Position numbers and translations under genes: made by a program. DNA of 64,000 nt from Candidatus Omnitrophota bacterium. GTDB lineage: Bacteria > Omnitrophota > Gorgyraeia > 2-01-FULL-45-10. Shown in pieces: positions 813 to 60,589 of the stretch (position 1 is its first letter; every line of letters begins with the position of its first letter). The DNA lies in contig JAGOLR010000001.1 of NCBI GenBank assembly GCA_017993955.1, positions 15,876-79,875 on the forward strand, in the 5' to 3' direction. A model generated the notes under the pieces. The model was not told the origin of the DNA. It searched no databases and was given only the letters and a program-made list of their open reading frames with translations.

Positions 813-2189
813 TCATCGGTCTTGAAGAAATTCTTTGCCCATGGTCTTATCTACAAATGCTTGGGCCATCAGGTAATCGTATATCCCGCCGGCCAGGTTC
901 TGTTCAACCTGGCTTAAAGAAACCTGCGAATCCAATATGTCCAGATTGATAGCTTCGCCGTTTTCGTAGCTGACATTGGCTATTCTCAAAGCCTCTGCCG
1001 CTTCTACCAGGCTGTCCTTTTGTGAATTGATGATAGCCTCTGACCTTATCATATCCAGGCACCCTTTACGTATATCTACAGCCACCTGATCCCGAAGGTC
1101 CATAGTAGAAAGGACTGCCTGGGCATACTTGGCCCGGGCATCCTGGACTTTCGCCGTGGTAGCGAAGCTGTCGAATATCGGCACCGTCACCACCACCCCG
1201 CCGCTCCAGTTCGAGTGCTTATAGTTAAACATGGTACCGACCCTGCTGGATTTATAACTGTAGCCGAAACTACCGCTGACCTGTGGTAGTAAAGAGGCTT
1301 GAGCCACGTCAATCCCCCATTTACTTATATCTATGCCCAGGGTCTGGGCTATAACCTGAGGATTGTGAATATACGCATTGATCAAGAACTCGGGTTCTTT
1401 GATTTCTACGGAATCGTAGGTCAATTTACCTATCACCTTGATATCGTCTTTCAAGTTAATACTGAGGAGTTTCTTCAAGTCGGATTTTAGTATGTCAACT
1501 TCGTTCTTGGCGCTTATATAACCTGGCGTGACTTTGGATATTTGGACCTTAGACTGCAAAAGATCGAACCTCGACGCCGTGCCATGATCGTACATGTTCT
1601 GCACTTGTGAATAATGCGCCTTGGCCTGGTCTACCAACTCTCCTTTTATCCTCTCTATCTCATACGCCAGAAGAAGCCCGTAAAAAAGCCTTTTGGTCTC
1701 GAATTCGACTTCGAGTTTCTTGGCCCGCAATAATTCCCATGCGGATTTAAGATTTAGTCTGGCCTGTTTCAACTGCGCATAGCTTGCTCCGCCGTTGAAA
1801 AGGTTCTCCTCTACGGTGACCGTCCCTACGTTCTCGTTTTGATAACCGGTGAATATGCCTATGTCTTTATGAACTCCTTCGGCTTGCTCGATGGCCTGAG
1901 GAAGCTTAAATGTGGCGGCGTTGTAAGTGTAGTTATACTGGGTATTCAGCTTTGGCAGAAACTCGCTTTTTGCATACAGAATACCTGCCTTGGCGGCGGC
2001 GACCTGCTCCTCCTGTATCTGGATAGATTTATTGTTTTTATAGGCTATGGATATAGCGTCCTCGAGGGATAGCGGGATCGTCTGCATGCTGCGTTTATTT
2101 ATTTCGCATATACCCTGAGATGCGCCGCAAACTATTAATGCCAGAAAGGCAGCGAACAAACAAAAAGGCAATGCCTTGGATCTAGACAT
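813..2189 (-). CDS. TolC-family outer membrane efflux protein
   Basis: ORF track 813..2276. The likely true start is MSRSKALPFCLFAAFLALIVCGAS (signal peptide) at 2189. It shows two repeat halves typical of the outer membrane factor family. Confidence 0.6.
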   Translation of the reverse strand: MSRSKALPFCLFAAFLALIVCGASQGICEINKRSMQTIPLSLEDAISIAYKNNKSIQIQEEQVAAAKAGILYAKSEFLPKLNTQYNYTYNAATFKLPQAIEQAEGVHKDIGIFTGYQNENVGTVTVEENLFNGGASYAQLKQARLNLKSAWELLRAKKLEVEFETKRLFYGLLLAYEIERIKGELVDQAKAHYSQVQNMYDHGTASRFDLLQSKVQISKVTPGYISAKNEVDILKSDLKKLLSINLKDDIKVIGKLTYDSVEIKEPEFLINAYIHNPQVIAQTLGIDISKWGIDVAQASLLPQVSGSFGYSYKSSRVGTMFNYKHSNWSGGVVVTVPIFDSFATTAKVQDARAKYAQAVLSTMDLRDQVAVDIRKGCLDMIRSEAIINSQKDSLVEAAEALRIANVSYENGEAINLDILDSQVSLSQVEQNLAGGIYDYLMAQAFVDKTMGKEFLQDR

Positions 2190-2318
2190 TGCCGTATTTT
2201 TTAACCCGCCCTTTATATACATTATAATATCCTTAAATATAATGAATATATTACTACCTCCCAGATTAATGGTCAAGTATGATCAAAATAAAATAACCCG
2301 GTCGACATTATTTAAAGG

Positions 2319-4049
2319 TCACGGAAGATTTGGATTTAACTCTTTAGCTATTCCGTACGCCTCGTCTGCAGCCTGTTCTTGACCCAGTTTTCGGTATGCC
2401 TTGCTTAGATTATAGTAGCCTATGGCATTGTATGGGTTTATATCTACGGCTTTCTTATATAATCTAGCCGCTTCGTCAAAATGACCTAATCGGTACGAAA
2501 TATTCCCCATATTGCTGTATGTTTCCGAATAATTAGGTCTTATTTCGAGGGCTTGGCGATATGCATTCATGGCAGCCTCATGATCACCTAAAGCATCGTA
2601 AGCTGTTCCGAGGTTATTATACGCATCGGCAAAACGCGGATTGACTGCGATGGCTTTCTTATATATTTCTACGGCATCCTGCAACTTACCCAATTTATTA
2701 TACAGATTACCAAGGTTGGAATAAGCGCCTGTATATTGAGGGTCGGATTCTATGGCCTTTTTATATGAGCCAATGCTCTTTTCATAATCCCCCATATCGG
2801 CATACATATTACCCAGATTGTTATAGATACGCGCGGCATCGGTATATTTTAATGTACGTTCATAAAATGTAATTGGGTCTTTCCAGTAAACATTCTGTGT
2901 TATGGTAAGATAACCGAAAAATATCGCTACCAATCCTAATACGGAAAACGCGGTTATTTTAAAACCGTTTATATCCGATAGTTTCGCCAAAAAATATCCG
3001 ACAACGCCAAATAACCCTATAGACGGTACATAAAGCCAGTGTTCGGCCATATACGCATTTATAGGGTAAAGATTTGAGACCGGTAACATACACAGGCAAA
3101 ACCAACCTAATAAGAAAAAAATGGGCTTTTCATTGCGAGTAACATAAACATATAACAAAAAGAACGCTAAAATTATAACCCCTGCTAATACCATTGGATC
3201 TGTTAAGCCGAATGTGCGTTTCCCGTATTCCATATGCAGACCAAAGGGAAAAAATATTATACGAGCGTATTGAAAGATCGCCGCAAAAAACCCAGCTAAT
3301 CTTTCAGTAAAAGGTTGCGGTATCACCGGCTCTGAAAGAGGAAAAGAAAAGACTGTAAGTCTAAGCGTTATATATAAAGCTGTAATGGCACCTATAACAC
3401 AGGCGGGCACAACCTTGATCTTATATTTGAAAACATAATGATATAGACATAGCAAGAATGGAAGTATGATTGCGTATTCTTTGGAAAGTAAAGATAATAC
3501 ATAACAAGCCGCCGATAAAACAAAAAATGCCGTTTTATTCGAATCTAAATATTTAATATAAAAGGTAAAAAACGCGGCTATTCCTAAACCCGCCAACACA
3601 TCGGCCCTGCCTGATATATATGCTACAGCTTCTACATGAACGGGATGAACCATAAAAAGAATGGAAGTAAAAAATCCGGCACGGGTGTTTTTGAACAGAG
3701 AAGAAATAAAGATATAGATGAATATGCCGACCAATATATGCATTATCGTATTCGTGAGATGATAACCAAATACCGAAAGGCCCCATAAAAAATAATCTAT
3801 CATGTAAGTAAATATTTGGACCGGCCTATAAAAGCTGTAGCTAAAATTCGCTCCGGCACCTATATCTTGAGTAAAGACCTTGGGAAGATAAGAGAGGTTC
3901 TTGACGTAAATATTATCGACTATGAGTCGGTCGTCATCGTATAGAAACTGATTACCGAATGAATTAGCATAAATAATAAAACCCAAGACCGCTATTATCG
4001 CTATATGTGCTATGCTTAGAGTTCTTGGATCTTCTTTAATTTGACCCAT
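2319..4049 (-). CDS. Multi-pass membrane protein with C-terminal TPR repeats (PMT/TMTC-like glycosyltransferase-39-type architecture)
   Basis: 576 aa. The N-terminal ~400 aa are hydrophobic with many TM helices. The C-terminus carries repeated AY.NLG..Y...G....A...Y..A TPR units. Confidence 0.55.
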   Translation of the reverse strand: MGQIKEDPRTLSIAHIAIIAVLGFIIYANSFGNQFLYDDDRLIVDNIYVKNLSYLPKVFTQDIGAGANFSYSFYRPVQIFTYMIDYFLWGLSVFGYHLTNTIMHILVGIFIYIFISSLFKNTRAGFFTSILFMVHPVHVEAVAYISGRADVLAGLGIAAFFTFYIKYLDSNKTAFFVLSAACYVLSLLSKEYAIILPFLLCLYHYVFKYKIKVVPACVIGAITALYITLRLTVFSFPLSEPVIPQPFTERLAGFFAAIFQYARIIFFPFGLHMEYGKRTFGLTDPMVLAGVIILAFFLLYVYVTRNEKPIFFLLGWFCLCMLPVSNLYPINAYMAEHWLYVPSIGLFGVVGYFLAKLSDINGFKITAFSVLGLVAIFFGYLTITQNVYWKDPITFYERTLKYTDAARIYNNLGNMYADMGDYEKSIGSYKKAIESDPQYTGAYSNLGNLYNKLGKLQDAVEIYKKAIAVNPRFADAYNNLGTAYDALGDHEAAMNAYRQALEIRPNYSETYSNMGNISYRLGHFDEAARLYKKAVDINPYNAIGYYNLSKAYRKLGQEQAADEAYGIAKELNPNLP

Positions 4050-7436: not shown

Positions 7437-7663
7437 TGTGTATAAAAAATCCCCGCTGATGCCGTGTGTGATTGAATTATCTTGACCCTGTTCGTAACAG
7501 GTGGGTGCCCTCGTACGTACGCCAAGGCGTCCGTTCAGTTAGGCTCCCTAGTTTAGTGCTAATGGCTCAAGATTCTCCATCCGAATCACGCACATCGCAG
7601 GGAATTTTTATTCCACTACAAGTATATCACAAAAATCGGGAAAGACAAATCGAACCCCGGCCG

Positions 7664-19458: not shown

Positions 19459-20331
19459 TTACACAGAATCCGCTATAGTATCGCTTAGTTTTTGTTCCTC
19501 AACTTTTCCTATTTCATTCTCGCCCAAATCGTTACCATTATTAACTGACTTTATAAAGTCGGTGCTAACTTTCTTATCACCCAAAAACTCATCTGTAAAT
19601 TCCTGATATTTTAATGCCCCGATAGAATGCTTATCATATAATGCAACGGGCTTACCGAACCCTGGAGCTTCTGTAAGTCTGATATTCCGCGGAATAACGG
19701 TATTATATACCTTATCTTTAAAAAATTTACGTACTTCATCAATCACTTCATTTGTAAGCTTGGTTCTAAAGTCAGCCATTGTGAGCAAAACGCCTTCGAT
19801 AGATAAGCCGGGATTAAGATTTTCTTTAACGAGATCTATGGTGCCTGAGAGCTGGCTTAAGCCTTCCAGGGCGTAGTACTCGCACTGGATAGGAATAAGG
19901 ACGGTATAGGCCGCCGAGAGCGCATTAATGGTTAATAATCCAAGCGATGGCGGGCAATCCATTATTATGAAATCGAAATTGCTAGATATGTGCGAAATGG
20001 CTTTTTTTAGACGGTATTCACGACCCATAGTACCGACGAGCTCGATCTCTGCGCCGGTCAGATTAAGATTTGATGGTATGAGCGAAAGATTTTCTATCGG
20101 AGTCTTGATAATTATATAGCTCGGGTCGGACTCCTCAACGAGAAGGTCATATACGCTAGACTTGATAGAGTGTTTATCTATACCGAGACCGCTTGTAGCA
20201 TTGCCCTGAGGATCGATGTCGATAAGGAGGACGCGCTTTCCAGAGATGGCAAGCGCTGTGGAGAGGTTGATGGCTGTCGTAGTTTTGCCGACACCACCTT
20301 TTTGATTACATATCGCGATTATTTTCGGCAT
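19459..20331 (-). CDS. parA: Chromosome partitioning ATPase ParA/Soj
   Basis: Deviant Walker A KGGVGKTTTAINL. Length 290 aa, with a C-terminal extension. Confidence 0.9.
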   Translation of the reverse strand: MPKIIAICNQKGGVGKTTTAINLSTALAISGKRVLLIDIDPQGNATSGLGIDKHSIKSSVYDLLVEESDPSYIIIKTPIENLSLIPSNLNLTGAEIELVGTMGREYRLKKAISHISSNFDFIIMDCPPSLGLLTINALSAAYTVLIPIQCEYYALEGLSQLSGTIDLVKENLNPGLSIEGVLLTMADFRTKLTNEVIDEVRKFFKDKVYNTVIPRNIRLTEAPGFGKPVALYDKHSIGALKYQEFTDEFLGDKKVSTDFIKSVNNGNDLGENEIGKVEEQKLSDTIADSV

Positions 20332-20518
20332 CTATCTTATTTTGTTCCCCGGGGAACTATGTTCCACGTGGAAAAACGCTTTAAGAACGTCTTTATCTTT
20401 TCGACTCGGCCAAAATTATTGTTCGAGCAATGTCGATAATAATAATTTTGGACTAGCTCGAAACGTATTTTTTATAGCTAAAATATACCTTAGAAAATTC
20501 ATATTGTCAAACAGAAAT

Positions 20519-22108
20519 CTACTGTTTTTTAAATACAGCCTGTTGCTCGACAACGGTAAGCACGGTATTAATAACCCAGTAAAGAACAAGCCCCGACGGC
20601 ATATTATAAAATATAAATCCGAACATTATTGGCATCACTATCAGCATTATCTTTTGCTGTTCTCTTTGCTCAACCGTTATCGCCAATCCCATCGTTTTTG
20701 TAGAGATTTTTTGTTGTAGCACCATCGCGACCACCATAACGAGCGGCAATATGTTTATGCTATTTCCTATCAATGGTAACGTAAATGGTATAGGTACTGC
20801 GTCGGGCATCGAAAGATCCTTGATCCATAAAAATTTTGTCCCGCGTAACTCTATAGACTTCATTAACGCTTGGTATAACGCAAAAAATATGGGCATTTGC
20901 AATAACATCGGCAAACAACCGCTAAATGGATTTATCTTATACTTTTTATATAGCTCCATTATCTCCTGGTTCAACTTTTGGGGGTTACCTTTATATTGAA
21001 CCTTTAGTTTTTCCATCTGAGGGTGCAATTCCTGCATCTTTTGCATAGATTTGAAGCTTTTCATGGTCAGCGGGAACAGGATAACATTCAAGAATACGGA
21101 TAATAATATTATTGCTAAACCCCAACTATGGACAATTTTGTAAAAAAACTTCATTACGGCAAGTATAAATTTGCTTATGCCGCCAAAGAAACCATAGTTT
21201 ATAGACTCGTCCAAGCCATATCCTACTTGCCGTAAGCTAGCTATGTCACTTGGACCAGCATATATAATATATTTTTGTTCGGATGTTTCACCTGGTTGAA
21301 TAGTGATAGGCTCTACATCCACACCATTCACAAGATACCCATTGCTAGAAACCGAATAAAACTGACTTATTGTATTAACAAAAGGCTTGAAAACTACGGA
21401 AAAATATTTATTTTTAAGGGCTGTCCAAGACACCTTACCTGGGTTTGTTATCCTGGAGTCCTTAGGATGCTTAAATCCAACGGATTTTTCATCTATTTTA
21501 GATGCTATCTCAACAAACTGTTTATTTTGAGCGCTATCTTCATTAACACCTGCCCCAGCTATGATTCTATATCCGAATATTTGCGGCGATTGTGACACGT
21601 TCGTAGCTAATATATTAAGCCCTATAGCAAACTTACCGGGTATTAACGTAAATCTCTTGGCTATTTTAAAGTTTTTTGAATTAAGATTATATGTAATCGT
21701 ATTATTGGATTTATCTGACGTGTATTCAACTCCACCGAGAGACAGATCTTTATCATGAGAAGAGATAGAGCCTAGATAAGAACTTTGATCTAGCACATCC
21801 GCAAGACATAGTGGAGCGCTTGTCTTGGTCCCATTATATCCTTTGAGACATATTTTCTTTAAGCCTGCATTGATATTACTAAACTCTAATACAAATTTTT
21901 CATTTTCTAAAATATCTAGATCTTCTTTTATCTGCGTATTGAGTTCTTTAGGGGTATCAATAGTTTGCAACTCTTCCGATTTTGATACAGAAGTCGTGGA
22001 AGGAATAGGTGCAGTTGTGTCAAGTGTTTTAGATGGCTTGTTAAAAAATTGAAAAGACACTATTATAAATATAGAAAGCGCTACTGCAATTACAAGTCTT
22101 TTTTCCAT
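20519..22108 (-). CDS. yidC: Membrane protein insertase YidC
   Basis: 529 aa with a periplasmic domain followed by a conserved 5-TM C-terminal core. Confidence 0.88.
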   Translation of the reverse strand: MEKRLVIAVALSIFIIVSFQFFNKPSKTLDTTAPIPSTTSVSKSEELQTIDTPKELNTQIKEDLDILENEKFVLEFSNINAGLKKICLKGYNGTKTSAPLCLADVLDQSSYLGSISSHDKDLSLGGVEYTSDKSNNTITYNLNSKNFKIAKRFTLIPGKFAIGLNILATNVSQSPQIFGYRIIAGAGVNEDSAQNKQFVEIASKIDEKSVGFKHPKDSRITNPGKVSWTALKNKYFSVVFKPFVNTISQFYSVSSNGYLVNGVDVEPITIQPGETSEQKYIIYAGPSDIASLRQVGYGLDESINYGFFGGISKFILAVMKFFYKIVHSWGLAIILLSVFLNVILFPLTMKSFKSMQKMQELHPQMEKLKVQYKGNPQKLNQEIMELYKKYKINPFSGCLPMLLQMPIFFALYQALMKSIELRGTKFLWIKDLSMPDAVPIPFTLPLIGNSINILPLVMVVAMVLQQKISTKTMGLAITVEQREQQKIMLIVMPIMFGFIFYNMPSGLVLYWVINTVLTVVEQQAVFKKQ

Positions 22109-22131
22109 TGTCCACCTTTTAATTGGAGATA

Positions 22132-22338
22132 TTAAGCCGGATCGTATCCGCCTTTTGATAGAGGATGGCAGCGTAAAAGCCTAAACATGCCTTTCAAGAG
22201 CCCCCTTATAACGCCATATTTTTCTACTGCATCAATAGCATATTGTGAGCAGGATGGATAAAACCTGCAGCATTGTAACTTCAACGTTGATAGATACTTA
22301 CGATAAAATTGTATGATCCAAACTATCTTTTTTTTCAT
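22132..22338 (-). CDS. yidD: Membrane protein insertion efficiency factor YidD
   Basis: 68 aa with the [11 protein letters not shown] motif. Confidence 0.88.
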
Positions 22339-22694
22339 TTGACTAACCCGGCTCTGGAGGCTAATTTCTTAAAACGCGACTCTATCTCCTGGTATGCTAT
22401 CTTTTTGCATGGAAGCTTTGTAAATATAACGACTATATCATAGCCGCCGGCTAAGTTCTTTTTTGTTTTACGGAAAACTTCGCGGGTAAGCCGGCGTAGC
22501 CGGTTTCGCATAGTGGCAAGCCGTATCTTCCTGGAACTGATAGAAAACCCCAGGCGCGTAACGGATGAGTTGTTGGGCATACAACGGATCACGATATAAT
22601 CGTCTTTGTATGGCCGCGCCTTTTTATATACTGCTTGAAATTGTTTGGATTTTAAAATATGCTCTGCTTTACGAAACTTCTCGTCGGAAATCAT
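22335..22694 (-). CDS. rnpA: Ribonuclease P protein component
   Basis: 119 aa, basic. It lies between rpmH and yidD, the canonical position. Confidence 0.85.
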
Positions 22695-22828
22695 ACCGTA
22701 AGCTTACGGCGGCCTTTCTGTCTGCGTCTCTTTAGCACCTCGCGGCCCCAGCGGTCTTTCATCCTTTTTCTGAACCCATGTTTCCTTTTCCTCTTTATAT
22801 TGGATTTCGGGCGTAAATTATATTTCAT
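22691..22828 (-). CDS. rpmH: 50S ribosomal protein L34
   Basis: Not in the ORF track because it is under 60 aa. Manual translation gives [45 protein letters not shown]. Its TGA stop overlaps the rnpA ATG (ATGA). Confidence 0.85.
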
Positions 22829-23097
22829 GATATTTTCCTTTCGTTTGGTGAATGCTGATTATATCATATAGAATATAGTCGTCAATAGATTTATCTTTTT
22901 TGGAGTGCCTGCTATTCCTTTATGAAATATTAAAACATGTCAGCCCGGCGCGCAACACCGGCTCTTTTACCCGTAAACCGGATATAAATGTTTAAATACA
23001 CTTTTTAGGCGTGAGATTTTCCTTGCATTACCATCTTTTTTTTAATATAATACGCCTCGCGCCATGTCTTTTCACCGCGTACTATATGTGAACACCT

Positions 23098-23149
23098 TGT
23101 GGATAACTTATTATTTTATGTTAAAAACCCGGTTTACAGCTGTGGATAA
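23098..23149. promoter_or_regulatory. Two perfect DnaA boxes (TGTGGATAA, the complement of TTATCCACA) upstream of dnaA
   Basis: Exact 9-mers at 23098-23106 and 23141-23149 in the same orientation. The surrounding region is AT-rich (22830-23160). Confidence 0.7.
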
Positions 23150-23163
23150 CTTGGGAATATGTT

Positions 23164-24537
23164 ATGCAAGAGCATGAGCAATCCATCTGGTCGAGAGCCT
23201 TGGAGTATATAAAGGCAGAACTTAATAACGACCAGACTTATAATGTATGGTTCAGCCCTATAAAATACGTAGGCCTTGCCCAGGACAAGATCACCCTTGA
23301 GGTCCCGAATAAGTTCTTCAAAGTATGGCTTCTCGAGCGGTATATGGACCTGATCAATAATTGTATCGAGAAGTCATCGGGTAAGGAGCTGGGTATAGAG
23401 TTTGTATTGGGCGAGGCCGAAGAAGACGAGGCCATTGGCAAAACAAGGCCTGCCGAACAAAAAAAAGACGCCAGACAGTTCTGGCCTTTCGCAAAACCGG
23501 TATCCGGAGTCGCAAAGGAGATAGGTCTAAACCAGAAGTATACCTTCGAGAGTTTTATCGAGGGGCCGAGCAACAGGTTCGCAAGGGCGGCATCGCTGGC
23601 GGTCTCGGATTCACCGGCCAAAGCCTACAACCCGCTTTTTATCTACGGTGGCGTGGGTCTCGGTAAGACGCATCTTATGCACGCCATCGCCCACCGGGCT
23701 CTGCAACGCTCTCCCAAGACTAAGATTTTATACATCTCCAGTGAGGATTTTACCAACCAATTGATAAGCGCGATACAAAACCGCACAACTCCCGCCTTCA
23801 GGACTAAATATAGAAATGTTGACATCTTACTTATAGACGATATACAATTTATCGCCGGTAAAGAATCTACGCAAGAAGAGTTCTTTCACACATTCAATAC
23901 GCTTTTCGACGCGCATAAGCAGATAGTGGTCTCGAGCGACCGGCCCCCGAAGGAGATCCACCTCCTTGAGGAGCGTCTCGTATCCCGTTTTGAGTGGGGC
24001 CTGGTAACCGATATCCAGCCGCCTGATTTTGAAACGCGCATGGCTATATTAAAGAAGAAGTCCGAGAAGGAAACGATAGCGCTGCCCGAAGATGTTTTTT
24101 ATTTTTTAGCGGAGAAGATCAAGACAAACATACGGGAGCTTGAGGGGGCGCTGATACGGGTGGTGGCTTATGCAAAACTTATAGGTAAAGACGTATCCGT
24201 CGCTTTGGTAAAAGAGGTTTTAAAGGATATGTTGATCGAGGGGGAAAAGAAGATCACTATAGACCTGATACAAAAAAAGGTTAGCGAATATTTTGATATA
24301 AAACTTTCGGATATGCGCGCTAAGAAGCGCTCCAAAACCATAGCTTACCCCAGGCAGATAGCTATGTATCTTGCGCGACAACTTACCGATTTTTCTCTTC
24401 CTGAGATCGGGGATCAGTTCGGCGGGCGCGACCACACTACCGTTATACACGCTTGCGATAAGATAGAGGGTGATTTGAAATCCAAAGAAGGTTTTAAAAA
24501 GATGATTGACAATTTGGTTTTAAGCCTTAAAGGATAG
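23164..24537 (+). CDS. dnaA: Chromosomal replication initiator protein DnaA
   Basis: 457 aa with AAA+ motif GGVGLGKTHLMHAI and the C-terminal DNA-binding domain. Confidence 0.95.
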   Translation: MQEHEQSIWSRALEYIKAELNNDQTYNVWFSPIKYVGLAQDKITLEVPNKFFKVWLLERYMDLINNCIEKSSGKELGIEFVLGEAEEDEAIGKTRPAEQKKDARQFWPFAKPVSGVAKEIGLNQKYTFESFIEGPSNRFARAASLAVSDSPAKAYNPLFIYGGVGLGKTHLMHAIAHRALQRSPKTKILYISSEDFTNQLISAIQNRTTPAFRTKYRNVDILLIDDIQFIAGKESTQEEFFHTFNTLFDAHKQIVVSSDRPPKEIHLLEERLVSRFEWGLVTDIQPPDFETRMAILKKKSEKETIALPEDVFYFLAEKIKTNIRELEGALIRVVAYAKLIGKDVSVALVKEVLKDMLIEGEKKITIDLIQKKVSEYFDIKLSDMRAKKRSKTIAYPRQIAMYLARQLTDFSLPEIGDQFGGRDHTTVIHACDKIEGDLKSKEGFKKMIDNLVLSLKG

Positions 24538-24540
24538 TTT

Positions 24541-24716
24541 TGGTTGTTGGTTTGTTGTGATTTGTGTTGATAAGTTTATGTGGTTTTAAACAATGTGTTT
24601 TATGTTGTATAATATTGCAGTTACGTCGGTTGTGTAGTTATACACATATCCACAGGTATTACTAATATTTCTTCTGTCTTTTAAAAAATAATAGAAACCG
24701 AAGAGGTGTGGACAAA
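24541..24716. promoter_or_regulatory. dnaA-dnaN intergenic region with DnaA-box-like 9-mers and an AT-rich tract (oriC candidate)
   Basis: TTATaCACA at 24638-24646, aTATCCACA at 24646-24654, TGTGGAcAA at 24707-24715. A GT-rich tract lies at 24541-24600 and an AT-rich tract at 24661-24695. Confidence 0.5.
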
Positions 24717-25814
24717 ATGAAATTTAATACAACCAAAGACGTTCTTTTAAAAGGTATACAAAGCGTACAAGCGGCTATAGGGACAAAAGCCAACCTACCG
24801 ATATTATCAAATATATTAATAGAAGGTACGGATGATGAAGTGGTGATGACAACGACAGATCTTGATATAGGTATAGTATCCACAATACCTATAAAACCTT
24901 CGGTAAAAGGAGCCATTACAATACCGGCTAAAAAATTCTCGGATATAATAAAGGAGTTGCCGGAGAAAGAAACGATATCAATATCAGTCAAAAAAAATAA
25001 TCTCGTAAATATAGATTGCGAAAAAAATTCTTTCAAAATAATGGGTTTGCCAAAAGAGGAATTTCCCCAAGTCCCGGCGTTCAAAGACAAAGATTCAATA
25101 ATTCTCCAGCAAAAAACTTTCAAAAAAATGCTCTCAATGACAAACTTTGCCATAAGTCACGATGAGACGCGTTATGTTTTAAACGGCGTGTTGGCGATAA
25201 TCAAACCTTCTTTTATAAGGCTCGTCGCCACAGACGGCAGGAGATTGGCTGTTATAGAAGAGAAGATGCAGCTTCCAAAAACACTGGAGAGAAAGATCAT
25301 AATACCGATAAAAGCGGTCGGCGAACTTCTTAGGGTTTTGGGCGATGAGGGCGACGTCAAAATATACTTTGCCGAGAACCAGGTATTTTTCGACGTCGGA
25401 GCCGTGAGAATAATATCCCGCCTGATCGAAGGCGAATTCCCGAACTACGAGCAAGTTATTCCAAAAGAGATCAAAGATAAGATCGTTTTATCGAGAGACA
25501 AATTTCTGTCCGGCATAAAACGCGTCGCTTTATTTACAAACCCGGATTCTATGGCGGTAAAGATAGACCTCGCTCAAAATAAGATCGTGCTTTCAAAAAA
25601 CACGCCATATCTGGGTGAGGCCCGTGTTGAGCTGGAGGCGGATTATAAAGGCAAGGAACTGTCGGTCGGCTTCAACCCTGACTACCTGGCCGATCTTTTA
25701 AAAAACATTGACGATGAAAAGGTTAATTTTGAGATAGTGGATTCGGAAAAACCGGGAGTGGTGAGGATCGGTTCCGAATATACCTATGTCGTTCTTCCGA
25801 TGCAGATAACATAA
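24717..25814 (+). CDS. dnaN: DNA polymerase III beta subunit (sliding clamp)
   Basis: Starts MKFNTTKDVLLKGIQSVQ. The ORF track begins at a GTG 9 nt upstream. The ATG at 24717 has a GAAGAGG RBS. Confidence 0.9.
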   Translation: MKFNTTKDVLLKGIQSVQAAIGTKANLPILSNILIEGTDDEVVMTTTDLDIGIVSTIPIKPSVKGAITIPAKKFSDIIKELPEKETISISVKKNNLVNIDCEKNSFKIMGLPKEEFPQVPAFKDKDSIILQQKTFKKMLSMTNFAISHDETRYVLNGVLAIIKPSFIRLVATDGRRLAVIEEKMQLPKTLERKIIIPIKAVGELLRVLGDEGDVKIYFAENQVFFDVGAVRIISRLIEGEFPNYEQVIPKEIKDKIVLSRDKFLSGIKRVALFTNPDSMAVKIDLAQNKIVLSKNTPYLGEARVELEADYKGKELSVGFNPDYLADLLKNIDDEKVNFEIVDSEKPGVVRIGSEYTYVVLPMQIT

Positions 25815-25822
25815 ACGCGCAC

Positions 25823-26149
25823 ATGGCCGGCGACACCAACCCCCTCGACAAGATATTAAAAAACGTTATCGAGAAGATGGGGAAGAAGCGGCCCGGCGAA
25901 GAAGAGATAAGCGAGGCTTGGGTCGAAGCCGCGGGGAATGCCGCCGCCCGCCACTCGCGGCCGGTAGCCCTGAAAAAATCGGTGCTGGTGGTAAATGTAG
26001 ACGGGTCAGGCTGGCTTTATCAATTGTCTGTATCCAGGCGCGAGATCTTGGCGCGTTTAGGCGAGCTGATCAAAAAGAAGAAGATAAAAGACATACGTTT
26101 CAGAATAGGGGATATAACGCCCCCTAAAGAGGGCGATAAAAAAACATAA
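25823..26149 (+). CDS. DUF721/DciA-like protein
   Basis: 108 aa. VLVVNVDGSGWLYQLSVSRREILARLGE resembles the DUF721 core. Small DUF721 genes commonly occupy this dnaN-gyrB slot in place of recF. Confidence 0.55.
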   Translation: MAGDTNPLDKILKNVIEKMGKKRPGEEEISEAWVEAAGNAAARHSRPVALKKSVLVVNVDGSGWLYQLSVSRREILARLGELIKKKKIKDIRFRIGDITPPKEGDKKT

Positions 26150-28708
<2,559 letters not shown>

Positions 28709-49637: not shown

Positions 49638-50300
49638 ATGGCCGGCACTCTATACATAGTATCGACTCCGATCGGCAATCTTGCTGATATAACATTCCGC
49701 GCCGTCGAGACATTGAAAGGCGTGGATCTGATAGCGGCGGAAGACACGCGCCATACCAAGATACTTCTAGACCGCTATGACATAAAAAAGCCGATGACGA
49801 GCTATTTCGAGCATAACAAGATACGCAAGACCGAATATCTTCTCGAAGTGCTTTCTCAAGGTAAATCCGTAGCGTTAGTTTCGGACGCCGGCACTCCCGG
49901 AATATCAGACCCCGGCTATAGTGTTATAAGGTCCTGTATAGAAAAAGGTTTCCCGGTGGTGCCGATACCCGGTCCCACCGCGTTCGTCGCCGCGCTTACG
50001 GCGTCTGGTAAACCCACCGATTCCTTTACATTCGAGGGATTCCTGTCTAACAAGTCGACCAGGAGAAAGAATGAGCTCAAGAAATTGAAGGAGGAGAATA
50101 GGACCGTCGTGCTCTACGAGTCTCCCCACAGGATAGAAAAACTTCTTTTGGATTTACTTGAGATATACGGGGATATAGAAGTGGTAGTGGCGCGGGAGAT
50201 TACAAAAAAATTTGAGGAGATACGAAGAGAAAAGGTATCTATATTGGCCAAAGTATTTTCGGGAAAAGACGCAAGGGGGGAGTTTATAGTTATTATCTAA
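49638..50300 (+). CDS. rsmI: 16S rRNA (cytidine1402-2'-O)-methyltransferase
   Basis: LYIVSTPIGNLADIT...AAEDTRHTKILL, characteristic of RsmI. Confidence 0.8.
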   Translation: MAGTLYIVSTPIGNLADITFRAVETLKGVDLIAAEDTRHTKILLDRYDIKKPMTSYFEHNKIRKTEYLLEVLSQGKSVALVSDAGTPGISDPGYSVIRSCIEKGFPVVPIPGPTAFVAALTASGKPTDSFTFEGFLSNKSTRRKNELKKLKEENRTVVLYESPHRIEKLLLDLLEIYGDIEVVVAREITKKFEEIRREKVSILAKVFSGKDARGEFIVII

Positions 50301-50323
50301 GAAAAAATTTTCGTGGAATAAAT

Positions 50324-50356
50324 AAAAAACGGGCCTTAAAAGACCCGTTTTTTATT
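50324..50356. terminator. Bidirectional rho-independent terminator
   Basis: AAAAAACGGGCC-ttaaaag-ACCCGTTTTTTATTT between convergent rsmI and the FecR-like gene. Confidence 0.7.
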
Positions 50357-50376
50357 TATAAGACGTCAGGTTTTTA

Positions 50377-50850
50377 TTATTCGCCTTCCTGCTGCGCCTC
50401 TACCGTTACCGAGAATGTAGTGCCCCTTACTCCGACTATGGAAGTGGGGGTCTTAACTTCAAATCTGGATTTCTCGGAATGGAGTTTTTTGGCTTTTATC
50501 AAGACCTCTCCCAGGGCCAGGTCCAGAAGCGTAGACTGGGTCATAGCTTCTTTATCGGCTACAAGCTGAGCAAGTTCCATATTGCTGTTCTGCTTTACCT
50601 CGACAGTGGCTGTCTGCGCCATCCCGTCGACGTTCAAAACGGCAAATGAATTGGCCTGCGTGCGTATGGCATCACCCTGCCTTAACTCCATGTCCACGGA
50701 AGCTGGCATCCATGGGCCGGACGCTGTCTTGACCTCTACCGTACCTTCAAGCTCCAGCACTTTCGCTACTCTGGCGGTATCGGCAGCTATGGCCGCAGAA
50801 GCTAGAAAAAAAGCGCATAACACTATTGCCAAAACCCTAAATATCTTCAT
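50377..50850 (-). CDS. FecR-domain protein with signal peptide
   Basis: SIVGVRGTTFSV, typical of the FecR/DUF4974 fold. 157 aa. Confidence 0.5.
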   Translation of the reverse strand: MKIFRVLAIVLCAFFLASAAIAADTARVAKVLELEGTVEVKTASGPWMPASVDMELRQGDAIRTQANSFAVLNVDGMAQTATVEVKQNSNMELAQLVADKEAMTQSTLLDLALGEVLIKAKKLHSEKSRFEVKTPTSIVGVRGTTFSVTVEAQQEGE

Positions 50851-54279: not shown

Positions 54280-54338
54280 TAATTTGACATCGCCCGGGTA
54301 TTGGGCTAAAATAAATAAAATTAATAAACCTTTTAAAC

Positions 54339-54418
54339 CCAGTCCCGTGAGGCTGGAAAGGGAGAGCGAAGATGGAAACTGATCCCGTTTATCTATTTAT
54401 AGATAGGCGGGTTTTTTG
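54339..54418 (+). promoter_or_regulatory. PyrR-binding anti-antiterminator loop plus terminator (pyr attenuator)
   Basis: AGUCCCGUGAGGCU at 54341-54354 matches the PyrR box ARUCCNGNGAGGYU. A terminator hairpin CCCGTTTATCTAT-tta-TAGATAGGCGGG plus TTTTTTG follows at 54384-54418, just upstream of pyrR. Confidence 0.7.
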
Positions 54419-54441: not shown

Positions 54442-54990
54442 ATGAACTTTAAAGAGAAGTCCCGTATACTCGATAAGGATTCCATGGAAAAGACGCTTGA
54501 GCGTCTAGCCCATGAGATAATAGAACGTTCAGATGACATGGGAAAGGTTGCTTTGGTCGGGATAAAAAACCGGGGAGCCTATCTTGCGGGGAGGATCGCG
54601 GATAAGATAACCAGGATGACTTCTAAGCGTCCGCTTGTAGGGGCGTTGGATATAACCTTATATAGAGATGATCTTACGCAAGCCTGGGAACAACCGGTAG
54701 TCCATGCTACCGAGATCGATTTCGATATAAACGGGTTGAAGATAATACTCGTAGACGACGTGCTTTATACCGGGCGAACCGTAAGGTGCGCGCTGGACGC
54801 CCTTATAGATTATGGCAGGCCCGGATGCATAGAACTGGCTGTTTTGGTAGACCGGGGGCACAGGGAGCTTCCTATAAGGGCCGATTACGTGGGGAAGAAC
54901 GTGCCCACGGCAAAAGATGAAACGGTTGAGGTGCGTCTTGTCGAATGTGACGGCAAAGACGAAGTCGCCCTTTGCGAAAGGGAGAAGTGA
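54442..54990 (+). CDS. pyrR: Bifunctional pyrimidine operon regulator/uracil phosphoribosyltransferase PyrR
   Basis: PRTase motif ILVDDVLYTGRTVRCALDAL. 182 aa. Confidence 0.9.
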   Translation: MNFKEKSRILDKDSMEKTLERLAHEIIERSDDMGKVALVGIKNRGAYLAGRIADKITRMTSKRPLVGALDITLYRDDLTQAWEQPVVHATEIDFDINGLKIILVDDVLYTGRTVRCALDALIDYGRPGCIELAVLVDRGHRELPIRADYVGKNVPTAKDETVEVRLVECDGKDEVALCEREK

Positions 54991-57250: not shown

Positions 57251-58483
57251 ATGCCTTTCATCGTCGATCTCCATATACATTCAAGATATTCGCGCGCTAC
57301 GGCCAAGGATATGGACATAGAAAATCTCGTTAAGTGGGCCAAGATAAAAGGTATTGCGATGCTGGGCTCGGGAGATTTCACTCATCCGGCCTGGCTTGCG
57401 GAACTGAAAAAGAAGTTATCCCCGAAGTCCCGCGGAGTCTATGACCACGACGGGGTGGATTTTATACTGACCGGTGAAGTCTCAAATATATATTTTAAGG
57501 CGGGCCGGACGCGAAAAGTCCATAATATAATAGCTGTACCGGATTTTGAGGCGGCTGAAGAAGCGGCCGAGGCTCTTTCAGATTACGGAGACCTTAATTC
57601 AGACGGGCGCCCGATACTGCATCTGGAATGCGACAGGATGGCCAGGATGCTTTTCGGGATACATCCCGACATACTTATAATGCCGGCCCATGCCTGGACG
57701 CCGCATTTCAGCATATTCGGATCGAACTCAGGTTTCGATTCCCCCGCAGAATGTTTTGAAGGGGAGTTGCCGAAAATATTTTCGATAGAGACCGGGCTTT
57801 CGAGCGACCCAGAGATGAACTGGAGATGGTCGGCGCTCGACAGGTTCTGCCTTACATCGCATTCTGACGCTCATTCGCCGCACAAGATAGGGCGGGAGGC
57901 GAATGTATTTAAAGACAATATAGACTATCCGACGCTTGTAGAAGTGCTTAAGACCAAAGACAATAAAAGGTTCCTTTACACCATAGAATTTTTCCCCGAA
58001 GAGGGGAAGTACCACTGGGACGGCCATCGCGCTTGCGGCGAACGCTTATCCCCGGAAGACGCTATTCGTTCTAACAATCTTTGCCCCTCTTGCGGCAAAA
58101 AATTGACCATAGGTGTAATGCACAGGCTCTCAAGCCTGGCCGATAGGCCTTGCGGTTATGTCGACAAGAAGAGCCCGCGGTCTAAGAAATTAGTTCCGCT
58201 TGCTGAAATCATAGGGAGCGTGCTCGGGGTTTCGCCTGATTCTGTGTCGGTAGGTAAGGAATATTTTAAAATGATCAAAAATTTCGGGACAGAGTTCGGG
58301 GTATTGCTCGATGCTCCCGAAGAGGCCTTGCGGGAGAAATGCCTTCCCGGGGTGGCTCAAGGCGTAATTAATGTAAGAAGCGGCAACCTTGATATCGAAC
58401 CGGGATATGACGGCGAGTACGGTAAGGTAAACGTCTTGAAAAATGATAGTAACCGTAAGGATAAACAATTGAGTTTCTTGTAA
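57251..58483 (+). CDS. PHP-domain endonuclease Q-like protein (TIGR00375-type)
   Basis: N-terminal PHP domain (IVDLHIHSRYSRA), SDAHSP, zinc ribbon CPSCGKK, and LVPLAEIIG matching the EndoQ C-terminal region. 410 aa. Confidence 0.55.
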   Translation: MPFIVDLHIHSRYSRATAKDMDIENLVKWAKIKGIAMLGSGDFTHPAWLAELKKKLSPKSRGVYDHDGVDFILTGEVSNIYFKAGRTRKVHNIIAVPDFEAAEEAAEALSDYGDLNSDGRPILHLECDRMARMLFGIHPDILIMPAHAWTPHFSIFGSNSGFDSPAECFEGELPKIFSIETGLSSDPEMNWRWSALDRFCLTSHSDAHSPHKIGREANVFKDNIDYPTLVEVLKTKDNKRFLYTIEFFPEEGKYHWDGHRACGERLSPEDAIRSNNLCPSCGKKLTIGVMHRLSSLADRPCGYVDKKSPRSKKLVPLAEIIGSVLGVSPDSVSVGKEYFKMIKNFGTEFGVLLDAPEEALREKCLPGVAQGVINVRSGNLDIEPGYDGEYGKVNVLKNDSNRKDKQLSFL

Positions 58484-58497
58484 GAAAAGCACGGTTT

Positions 58498-59376
58498 TTG
58501 ACTCCGGACCCTAGACGAATGAAGCAGCTAAATACAAAAATAATTCATAACAAAAAAATAACGCCGCACCACTATAAGATGCGGCTAGAGTCCGGACATC
58601 TTGCTAAGCACTCTAACCCGGGGCAATTTGTGGAGGTCCGTTGTTCACACCATCCGGATCCTCTCCTGAGGCGTCCTCTGGGCGTTCACAGGATATTGCC
58701 GGATGGAATAGAGATTCTTTATGAGATCGTCGGGCGCGGGACAGAGTTGTTATCGCTAAAGAAAGCCGGAGAGGTTCTTGACGTGATCGGCCCTTTAGGT
58801 AATGGCTTCGGTATAAGGTCCATGGGCAATGGTTCACAGTCCACGGTTTTGGTTGCCGGTGGTATAGGGGTAGCGCCTTTGCTGGCGTTGGCGGAGAAAG
58901 TAGCGTATAGCGTAGAGCGCATAGCGGATAGGAAAAAAATAAAAGTTTTTATAGGCGCAAAAACCGCCTCGCATATATTATGCGCCGAAGAATTCAAAAA
59001 GTTGGGTTGCAAGGTTTATGTCGCAACCGAAAACGGTTCAAAAGGACATAAAGGGCTTATCACAGATTTACTCGACGGTTTTCTGCAATCAATGATTAAC
59101 GATCAACGATTAACGATCAACGAACGGCGAACGACGATATACGCTTGCGGCCCGACCGGTATGCTCAAAGCCGTTGCCGGGATCTCCGGAAGGCACGATA
59201 TCCCATGTCAGGTATCCCTGGAAGAACGCATGGCCTGCGGCGTAGGCGTTTGCCTTGGCTGCCCTGTCAAAATCCGTTCGGCACATACGATTAACGATGG
59301 ACGATCTACGATAAACGAATATAAGATGGTCTGTAAAGACGGTCCGGTCTTTGATGCGGACAGTATAGCTTGGTGA
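58498..59376 (+). CDS. pyrK: Dihydroorotate dehydrogenase electron-transfer subunit PyrK, carrying two short in-frame repeat-derived insertions
   Basis: FAD/NAD-binding fold with a C-terminal 2Fe-2S motif CGVGVCLGCPV...CKDGPVF. Insert-like segments INDQRLTINERRT and SAHTINDGRSTINE are encoded by ACGATTAACGAT-type repeats. Confidence 0.85.
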   Translation: MTPDPRRMKQLNTKIIHNKKITPHHYKMRLESGHLAKHSNPGQFVEVRCSHHPDPLLRRPLGVHRILPDGIEILYEIVGRGTELLSLKKAGEVLDVIGPLGNGFGIRSMGNGSQSTVLVAGGIGVAPLLALAEKVAYSVERIADRKKIKVFIGAKTASHILCAEEFKKLGCKVYVATENGSKGHKGLITDLLDGFLQSMINDQRLTINERRTTIYACGPTGMLKAVAGISGRHDIPCQVSLEERMACGVGVCLGCPVKIRSAHTINDGRSTINEYKMVCKDGPVFDADSIAW

Positions 59377-59403
59377 GAAAAGAAAAATTTTGTTATCGAT
59401 TAT

Positions 59404-59615
59404 TACTCCCGTGGTGGGTGTCTCGCGGGAACATCCGATTTTCCCCGGCGAGGAAAATCGGATTCGGTAAAATTGCTCGCTCTTTTGTGGCTGGGCTTTT
59501 GAACCGGGTGCTTGGATCACAGCTACGTGACTTTAGCACCCGGTTCAAACTGTGGCCACAAAAACCGTGCCCGCTCGCAATTTTAACGTCCCGCTTAACA
59601 CCCACCACGGGAGAT
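59404..59615. repeat. Nested perfect-palindrome element (MITE-like or structured RNA) in the pyrK-pyrD spacer
   Basis: A 16-nt perfect inverted repeat CTCCCGTGGTGGGTGT / ACACCCACCACGGGAG (59406-59421 and 59598-59613) encloses an ATCCGATTTTCC/GGAAAATCGGAT hairpin and a 12-bp GAACCGGGTGCT/AGCACCCGGTTC hairpin flanked by TTGTGGC/GCCACAA. Confidence 0.6.
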
Positions 59616-59677
59616 ATGGTGGGAAATAAAAATTTTTCATCGGGGAAATACAATTTCGTGATAAGCTTGAAGGCTAG

Positions 59678-60589
59678 ATGATGATGAAACCAAATCTTGC
59701 CGTAAAGATAGGAAGACTGAAATTAAAGAATCCCGTTATGGTGGCGTCCGGGACATTCGGCGAAGAGTACGGCGAGATGACGGATGTATCGAAACTTGGC
59801 GCTGTGGTCGCCAAGACCATAACGCTAAAGGCCAGGGTCGGTAATCCGCCTCCGCGTGTATGCGAAACAGATTCCGGCATGCTTAACTCAATAGGGCTGG
59901 AAAATAAAGGGGTGGAAGAGTTTATGTCCAGAAAACTTCTCGCCTTGAAAAAATTCCGCGTGCCGGTGGTGGTTAGTATAGCGGGTGAGTCCGAGGATGA
60001 ACTCGCGGAGCTGGCAAGCCGTCTCAAGGCGGTCGATGCCCTTGAGGTGAACCTGTCATGTCCCAACGTGAAACACGGCGCCCGCGAGGGGCTTATAGCC
60101 CAAGATGCCAGCGCAGTAGCGGCCTGTATTTCTGCTGTACGTAAAGCTACAAAAGCGCCCTTGATCGCCAAGCTCACGCCCAACGTTACGGATATAGCGA
60201 AGATAGCCGTTTCTGCAGAATCGGCCGGAGCCGATGCGGTCCTCGTAGCCAATACATTTTTCGGAATGGCAGTGGATATATATGCAAGGCGTCCAAAGCT
60301 GGGTAATATATGCGGGGGATTAAGCGGTCCGGCCATAAAACCTATGTCGCTTAAGATGGTGTGGGATACGGCGCGTAAGGTGAAAATACCGGTCATAGGC
60401 TGCGGCGGTATCATGGATTATAAAGATGCCGTGGAATTTATGCTCTGCGGAGCCTCCGCCATACAGGTGGGAACGGCGAATTTTGTAGCTCCGGACGCCT
60501 CCGCCGAAATAGTAAAAGGGATAGCAAGATATATGTCAAAAAACAAGATCGCTGATATAAGTAAATTAAGAGGAGCGCTTTTGGTATGA
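59678..60589 (+). CDS. pyrD: Dihydroorotate dehydrogenase catalytic subunit (class 1B)
   Basis: 303 aa with NPVMVASGTFG. It follows pyrK. Confidence 0.9.
   Translation: MMMKPNLAVKIGRLKLKNPVMVASGTFGEEYGEMTDVSKLGAVVAKTITLKARVGNPPPRVCETDSGMLNSIGLENKGVEEFMSRKLLALKKFRVPVVVSIAGESEDELAELASRLKAVDALEVNLSCPNVKHGAREGLIAQDASAVAACISAVRKATKAPLIAKLTPNVTDIAKIAVSAESAGADAVLVANTFFGMAVDIYARRPKLGNICGGLSGPAIKPMSLKMVWDTARKVKIPVIGCGGIMDYKDAVEFMLCGASAIQVGTANFVAPDASAEIVKGIARYMSKNKIADISKLRGALLV

Follow-up and report, generated by a model that had tools for sequence, protein, structure and literature searches.

The classical bacterial MITEs, among them the Correia elements of Neisseria, ERIC/IRU and RUP, are small, non-autonomous and palindromic, and are defined by conserved terminal inverted repeats matching those of a parent insertion sequence (IS) together with target duplications of fixed length (TA for Correia). 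Palindrome-associated elements derived from IS200/IS605, and other single-stranded DNA transposons, are recognised as folded single-stranded hairpins and produce no target duplication. The gene for RAYT, a Y1 HUH transposase, is typically flanked by REPs in the same genome. REP, BIME and REPIN elements are mobilised by such RAYT (TnpA_REP) transposases (PMC3116915, PMC3337134; bioRxiv 10.1101/2022.05.22.493013). The repeat family considered here, one copy of which lies between pyrK and pyrD in an Omnitrophota genome, is like REP/REPIN elements in being extragenic, non-coding, multi-copy and hairpin-forming, with arms that stay complementary (PMC3116915, PMC3337134; bioRxiv 10.1101/2022.05.22.493013). 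It further resembles them in that paralogs of one genome may be almost identical and copies at some loci have been kept for long, and in lying often inside operons, downstream of stop codons, with no target-site duplication. The differences are of three kinds: Firstly, REPs measure 20-40 nt and a simple doublet hairpin about 70-110 nt, whereas members of this family reach 140-260 nt and possess a three-way junction, an asymmetric internal loop and modular apical insertions. Secondly, the invariant sequence of the family is located in unpaired loops and is common to two phyla. Thirdly, no conserved GTAG-type flanking tetranucleotide was seen in the family, nor a RAYT gene in the sequence scanned.

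The pyr copy was analysed within a 64,000-nt stretch of DNA (the window, to which all coordinates refer; features of the element are given on the + strand). The sequence-only reading of this DNA had described a nested perfect-palindrome element between pyrK and pyrD at 59404-59615, which is real both when the sequence is read directly and by repeat finder. Its outer stem, P1, pairs CTCCCGTGGTGGGTGT (59406-59421) with ACACCCACCACGGGAG (59598-59613) over 16 perfect base pairs, evident from the sequence and the repeat finder, and this helix covaries in the family. Two inner hairpins of 12 bp had been reported: that at 59433-59463 stands, as side hairpin A, with a 12-bp stem of ATCCGATTTTCC (59433-59444) and GGAAAATCGGAT (59452-59463) and a loop, CCGGCGA, inside the family-conserved motif CCCCRGCGWGG; the second is instead a perfect stem of 15 bp enclosing a 22-nt loop, in which TTTGAACCGGGTGCT (59498-59512) meets AGCACCCGGTTCAAA (59535-59549) to form the apical module (59498-59549). 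Three helices go beyond the earlier description: P2, in which GCGGGA (59425-59430) pairs with TCCCGC (59589-59594) according to the fold and the covariation analysis; P3, with 11 of 12 positions paired between CGGTAAAATTGC (59465-59476) and GCAATTTTAACG (59577-59588); and an outermost A/T-rich inverted repeat of GAAAAATTTT (59382-59391) and AAAATTTTTC (59629-59638), identified from the repeat finder and from family flanks, with Omnitrophota copies carrying (T[AG])AAATTTTTCG ... CGAAAAATTT at the same position. Inclusion of this outermost repeat extends the element to about 59382-59638. P4 joins a T-run plus GC, TTTTGTGGC (59483-59491), to a GC plus A-run, GCCACAAAA (59555-59563), and, like hairpin A, P3 and the apical module, was located by the repeat finder. 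The two sides of the asymmetric internal loop are occupied by an invariant 5' block, CTCGCTCTTTT (59476-59486), and an invariant 3' block, AAAACCGTGCCCGCTCGC (59561-59578).

Folded as RNA, the 261-nt + strand reaches -129.9 kcal/mol (z = -12.5, 0 of 200 shuffles as good) and the - strand of the same length -132.2 kcal/mol (z = -12.6, no shuffle equal); as single-stranded DNA, the 261 nt fold at -78.6 kcal/mol (z = -13.5). The earlier statement that pairing is perfect and free of G-U holds for the 47 consensus pairs of the family, all of them Watson-Crick in the pyr copy, the most perfect among 17 aligned copies. The sequence CCCACCA in the 3' arm of P1 can also pair with TGGTGGG downstream (59601-59623), giving a small alternative hairpin that competes with the outer stem and is the source of a weak PhotoRC-II noise match. 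Local alignment detects an imperfect direct repeat, TGGTGGGAAATAAAAATTTTTCATCG (59617-59642) of TGGTGAGAAAAGAAAAATTTTGTTATCG (59371-59398), which includes the outermost inverted-repeat arm. This 26-28-nt repeat is probably no true target-site duplication, since recent paralogs in other genomes have no such flanks; it arises in part from the self-complementary A/T run and also reflects a third TGGTGGG copy able to pair with the 3' arm of P1.

The first lead to relatives of the element came from an accidental ORF on its minus strand, for which an exhaustive protein search returned a 'protein' of 70 aa that is 63% identical, and to which a subsequent profile search added a second one of 54 aa. 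Both entries, P0121 and P0122 (54-70 aa), are translated copies of related elements at the rpmB locus and the rodA locus and, being translations of the antisense strand of the repeats, are spurious gene calls. The copy at the rpmB locus lies between rpmB and an HTH/cupin gene (L017-L020, two of these contigs coming from samples that also hold a 90% relative without the pyr insertion) and that at the rodA locus directly after rodA (L021). Comparison of these first three copies revealed conservation in the unpaired regions and divergence in the stems. The family was then scanned for with a conserved 19-mer, GCGAGCGGGCAYGGTTTTT, the reverse complement of the invariant 3' block region, matched exactly in one genome per species. 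The scan recovered 44 genome stretches, 39 with the full architecture, in 22 assemblies whose labels include Omnitrophota, 'Planctomycetia', 'Saccharibacteria', Wolfebacteria, Parcubacteria, Moraniibacteriota and Patescibacteria. Up to eight copies were found per assembly (CAZYSH01 8, CAYGRZ01 4, JAZDOS01 4, CAZPQT01 3, JAHJHP01 3), and these counts are lower bounds because an exact 19-mer was required. Whilst CTCGCTCTTTT lies outside the search pattern, it is exact in 38 of the 42 retained copies and within <=2 substitutions in the other four; it is missing from L029, in which the 5' half is disrupted. Scanning of metagenomes with the apical hairpin of the pyr copy added a further rpmB-locus contig and four loci in ERZ795059, a sample holding a sister species, in which the copies belong to the same sub-lineage and are 77-89% identical to that of the window. 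The apical module of the pyr copy also occurs in L017, L066, L067, L069 and L070.

All copies are intergenic, and their neighbours comprise rpmB, rodA, ferredoxin-like genes, tmRNA and many others; in L050 (4724-5391), a copy sits about 110 nt downstream of the tmRNA gene. Multiplicity inside the 64-kb window was not borne out, as a repeat search and a covariance model of the 130-position core each find one copy (59422-59597, 124.8 bits with the model). The proposal of an interspersed repeat family is upheld by near-identical paralogs at different loci in other genomes, and membership of the pyr element in an interspersed, structured, non-coding family is firmly established. Exact scans with the outer-stem sequence CTCCCGTGGTGGGTGTNNNGCGGGA gave no match in genome_contigs or metagenome_contigs, the outer stem being copy-specific and the source genome outside both collections. 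Viral contigs yielded five single chance matches to the outer-stem 16-mer and none to the conserved 19-mer or to a 23-mer, so that the family was not detected there, and blastn gave no match to the insertion among phage or plasmid records. Rfam 15 gave only noise (window; 15 family loci; two CPR copies at E up to 5), and literature searches on Omnitrophica/CPR repeats and on motif strings returned nothing relevant. A family of hairpin-forming repeats of about 140-260 nt in Omnitrophota and Patescibacteria genomes has thus apparently gone undescribed so far.

Members of the family have a common architecture of outer stem, three-way junction, side hairpin (loop CCCCAGCGWGG), asymmetric internal loop and variable apical module. 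In the internal loop CTCGCTCTTTT and AAAACCRTGCCCGCTCGC are invariant, the 5' side reading CTCGCTC and the 3' side ACCRTGCCCGCTC, and the apical region ranges from 8 to 105 nt across the family. Copies from CPR genomes are shorter, at about 140 nt, but collinear. Covariation was assessed in 17 Omnitrophota-type copies aligned with MAFFT, with no use of structure in the alignment. Paired cells amounted to 92.4%, against 78.3 +/- 0.9% in shuffles, and double-sided changes occurred at 31 of 47 pairs (109 cells), values reached by 0 of 500 shuffles; when partner columns were slid as a control, pairing fell to 34-59%. Hairpin A covaries at 9 of 11 stem pairs in this alignment, and both hairpin A and P4 covary in the CPR alignment too; the loop of hairpin A is conserved in both. 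Variability within the family is greatest in the outer stem (CTCCCGTGGTGGGTGT in the pyr copy, CTTGAAGGTCGGGTAT in L070, AACTTGAGAATATGC... in L023), and the invariant sequence resides in internal unpaired loops. Covariation among copies in relatives had been named earlier as the sign of a functional structure, and it proved to be strong. The argument from perfect pairing to a young repeat, by contrast, does not survive: the family is old and compensatory change abundant, and perfect pairing is therefore not simply a matter of youth, though the pyr copy is unusually perfect.

Several further features were considered for the conserved sequence. A pseudoknot between the loop of hairpin A (AGCGAG) and the internal loop (CUCGCU) was rejected, as the loop variants AGCGUG and GGCGAG are uncompensated by a partner that is invariant. 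A small ORF starting from a conserved RTG (MPAR...) was likewise set aside, since CCCGCTCGC shows no synonymous variation and the frames downstream differ. A protein search found no homologs of the plus-strand ORF, the matches to the minus-strand ORF are translated repeats, and apical lengths of 8-105 nt, which differ by non-multiples of 3, break any common frame. The element family is non-coding.

Evidence of movement comes from comparison of copies, since paralogs of a single assembly can be almost the same. L024 and L035 are 97% identical over 183 nt within unrelated flanks, and L030 and L045 are 99% identical over their 5' 89 nt, after which they diverge through a long apical module, one that L045 has in common with L034. 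L066 and L067 carry an extra module within the 3' strand of P3, and L029 is a copy interrupted by another palindrome. As palindromic modules sit in scaffold loops of other copies, the 'nesting' of the pyr copy is a habit of the family, and the scaffold loops seem to accept further insertions. Classification as a classical MITE, the sequence-only reading having favoured a MITE-like repeat, is contradicted on several counts: no target-site duplications, for which a search had been proposed, were found at the boundaries of the paralogs L024, L035 and L028 (97% identical); the outer stem is variable and the invariant sequence internal, so that it is no MITE-type terminal inverted repeat; no conserved termini were found across family copies; and no parent IS was seen. 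The family is like MITEs in being small, palindromic and probably non-autonomous, in occupying intergenic spacers, in being co-transcribed with neighbours and in its possible effects on mRNA processing, but conservation is lowest at its termini, neither a duplication nor a parent IS came to light, and the element fails the defining tests of conserved termini and target duplication.

The likeness to IS200/IS605-type elements lies in the proposed recognition of folded single-stranded hairpins, in the lack of a target duplication, in an orientation bias that could follow the direction of replication and in a TTT(T)A(A/G)T-like 5' flank common to three recent paralogs, a motif that is weak and not general in the family. 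The family differs from them in forming one global fold-back rather than separate left-end and right-end hairpins, in the weakness of its target motif, and in the lack of a visible TnpA/TnpB gene close to its copies. Nor did a crude HUH...Y motif scan, applied to the ORFs of the window and of 70 loci, find a transposase or RAYT-like gene. Many Omnitrophota copies start within a few nt of an upstream stop codon. Elsewhere in the window, at 50298-50379, TAAGAAAAAATTTTCG follows the stop of the ORF at 49638-50300 and precedes a bidirectional terminator-like palindrome with 40-nt arms; this A/T motif resembles the left flank of the element and may be commonplace after stop codons or else be favoured as a target. 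Some positions recur between different assemblies: L021 and L024 both have a copy after rodA, and L026 and L027 both have one after a 4Fe-4S protein gene. This recurrence suggests either long retention or site preference.

The reading that we prefer, at a probability of about 0.6, is that the family consists of mobile DNA repeats comparable to REPINs, non-autonomous and dependent on structure, and that the pyr copy is passive in its transcript. Such a repeat would spread as DNA, probably mobilised in trans by a putative enzyme that recognises the folded single strand through the shape of its hairpins and its invariant loop bases, in the way that REP/REPIN elements are recognised by RAYT transposases. 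Complementarity of the arms would be maintained by this requirement for recognition and by arm-to-arm correction at the DNA level, a combination that would explain the perfectly Watson-Crick pyr copy. The left arm of P1 is nearly identical to that of L017, the right arm complements it exactly only in the pyr copy, and the arms of L017 mismatch; one arm of the pyr copy thus appears, from this comparison, to have been corrected to match the other. Counting against a mobile repeat are the lack of target-site duplication, of conserved termini and of a transposase in the scanned sequence, and the single copy in the 64-kb window, together with a 19-nt unpaired block invariant across two phyla, the strong covariation, a 22:8 orientation bias and the placement after stop codons. 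Recurrence behind one and the same gene across assemblies indicates that copies are retained for long, which would be unusual if the repeats were purely selfish.

Many of these same observations would be compatible with a multi-copy functional structured RNA, acting either in cis, within operon transcripts and 3' UTRs, or as the product of a small RNA gene, in which the invariant loops would bind a conserved protein or RNA and dispersal would be secondary, through recombination or an RNA/cDNA intermediate. Possible, though on balance unlikely, this alternative draws on the covariation and invariant unpaired nucleotides of both Omnitrophota and CPR copies, on the abutment of the 5' boundary to an upstream stop codon in many Omnitrophota copies, on copies after the same gene in different assemblies, and on a three-way junction, asymmetric internal loop and variable apical expansion typical of functional RNAs. 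It is favoured, too, by orientation: among 30 copies between co-directional genes, 22 are sense to both neighbours and 8 antisense. This bias could equally be linked to replication, as genes tend to follow its direction, and about a quarter of copies being antisense to their neighbours weighs against a functional transcript. Helix composition points the same way, with G-U (29) and A-C (21) at similar frequency among 791 helix cells, hence no excess of G-U, and none at all in the 47 pairs of the pyr copy. Nor does energy support the sense strand: RNA of the minus strand, antisense to most neighbouring genes, is more stable by about 8 kcal/mol in 36 of 39 copies, an advantage that stems from G-rich loops and not from wobble pairs in the helices, and that consequently assigns no strand. 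Further points against a functional RNA are that a scan for promoter-like and terminator-like sites found none within the insertion, that presence and absence vary among close relatives whilst near-identical paralogs exist, and that no Rfam family matches.

With regard to replication, the pyr element lies about 36 kb to the right of the dnaA-dnaN-gyrB origin region. That region spans 19459-28708 of the window, with parA, yidC and rnpA on the - strand and dnaA, dnaN and gyrB on the +, and GC skew changes sign at about 23-24 kb, adjoining an AT-rich stretch at 20-22 kb. The window also contains a 6S RNA gene (7446-7606, -; Rfam RF00013, 70.5 bits) and an AT-rich segment at 2001-4000 (GC 0.383, against about 0.47 around it).

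A bolder proposition, to which we attach slightly less credence than to a functional RNA and which is best regarded as speculative, is that the family constitutes a new class of mobile structured element in ultra-small bacteria (Omnitrophota, Patescibacteria), moving between phyla and with an apical loop that accepts nested palindromic modules. The loops CUCGCUCUUUU, AAAACCRUGCCCGCUCGC and CCCCAGCGWGG would then form a recognition or catalytic core for a putative partner, which could be a new transposase or recombinase acting on single strands, or else an activity at the RNA level.

Understanding what the element does at the pyr locus requires its context. The gene pyrK (58519-59376, +), for the electron-transfer subunit of DHOD-B (Pfam PF00175, NAD_binding_1; PF10418, DHODB_Fe-S_bind), ends at its native stop, TGA at 59374-59376, 5 nt before the outermost repeat of the element, and the C-terminus of PyrK aligns end to end with that of relatives without the element, with the same last residue in all. 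The gene pyrD (59678-60589, +), for the catalytic subunit (PF01180, DHO_dh), encodes a protein with 100% identity to P0001, whose name assigns it to a Candidatus Omnitrophica MAG; in the database it starts at the third ATG (59684), and the first ATG, at 59678, gives 303 aa. A Shine-Dalgarno-like GAAGG (59669-59673, +) lies 4 nt before the ATG at 59678 and 10 nt before that at 59684, and the equivalent site in relatives is GGTGA, overlapping the pyrK stop. Four relatives keep the operon order and have a pyrK-pyrD spacer of 4-16 nt (L002, L006, L016 and L015, with PyrD identities of 90%, 78%, 77% and 76%), and the covariance model of the family has no match in their pyr loci. Because the spacers of relatives are so short and their PyrK proteins end alike, some 300 nt (59377-59677) are extra at this locus. 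That the element was inserted in this lineage only, shortly after the pyrK stop and into a former spacer of 4-16 nt, can be regarded as firmly established, and the earlier preference for a DNA insertion over an evolved pyr riboswitch is vindicated by the same spacer being empty in all four relatives.

Two other features of the operon deserve mention. A 410-aa ORF (57251-58483, +) between a dihydroorotase (pyrC-like) gene and pyrK has no match in the Pfam copy used, and relatives retain this gene in the same position, where it is annotated PF27218 (MJ0043_C). Within pyrK, ACGAT/AACGA-like codon runs at 59095-59140 and 59280-59325, encoding INDQRLTINERR and HTINDGRSTINEY, resemble low-complexity inserts; as the second is conserved in relatives as TINDKRLTINEY, these runs are a lineage feature of PyrK and do not belong to the element.

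A pyrimidine-responsive attenuator or riboswitch in the pyrD leader is a highly improbable explanation, despite the position of the element inside a pyr operon with an upstream PyrR site and its very stable RNA structure. The element resembles the PyrR attenuator (RF00515) in its leader or intercistronic position and its stable RNA structure, but differs in that it has no sequence or model match and no terminator, is absent from this locus in relatives and has homologs in unrelated gene contexts. The spacers of the four relatives lack it, its homologs adjoin such unrelated genes as rpmB, rodA, ferredoxin-like genes and tmRNA, and an Rfam scan of 59200-59800 found no PyrR match and nothing reaching E = 10. 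The outer stem is followed by ATATGGTGGG, with none of the U-tract that an intrinsic terminator would require, and no terminator-like site was found within the insertion. The observation that the element contains no PyrR box was correct, the only PyrR site in the window being at 54325-54418 (+). That PyrR-binding site lies just upstream of a pyrR-like gene (54442-54990) and is the real regulatory RNA of the operon. The distribution of the family refutes an attenuator, and that the element is not one we again consider firmly established.

That the element is a one-off local inverted duplication or an assembly artefact has next to no probability: its arms are perfect and Logan contigs break within it, but two independent contigs from sample SRR11088414 match its left half and its right half, respectively, without a difference and with a 20-nt overlap, so that it is not an artefact of MAG assembly, about 40 homologs elsewhere have the same architecture, and perfect helices alternate with fully unpaired conserved loops, unlike a decayed simple palindrome. 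Both Logan contigs break inside the element, L014 ending at 59477 and L001 starting at 59458, either because the palindrome disrupts short-read assembly or because coverage drops there.

Returning to the preferred interpretation as a mobile DNA repeat, the pyr copy would be carried passively in the operon transcript as a structure of about -116 to -130 kcal/mol. Such a structure would uncouple the translation of pyrK and pyrD and could alter the processing or stability of the mRNA, with pyrD probably keeping a ribosome-binding site of its own in the Shine-Dalgarno-like GAAGG.

For studies of pyrimidine regulation, the main consequence is the removal of a false lead, as the element is not a pyr riboswitch. 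There are practical effects beyond this operon: short-read assemblies break at such elements, and spurious small ORF calls derived from them enter protein databases (P0121, P0122). More broadly, the family is a widespread and apparently unannotated repeat in two phyla that have been little studied and whose small, compact genomes would not be expected to contain repeats. Its covarying stems, together with loop blocks invariant across phyla, are unusual among bacterial repeats, and this combination points to a conserved trans-acting partner that would be discoverable by phylogenetic profiling.
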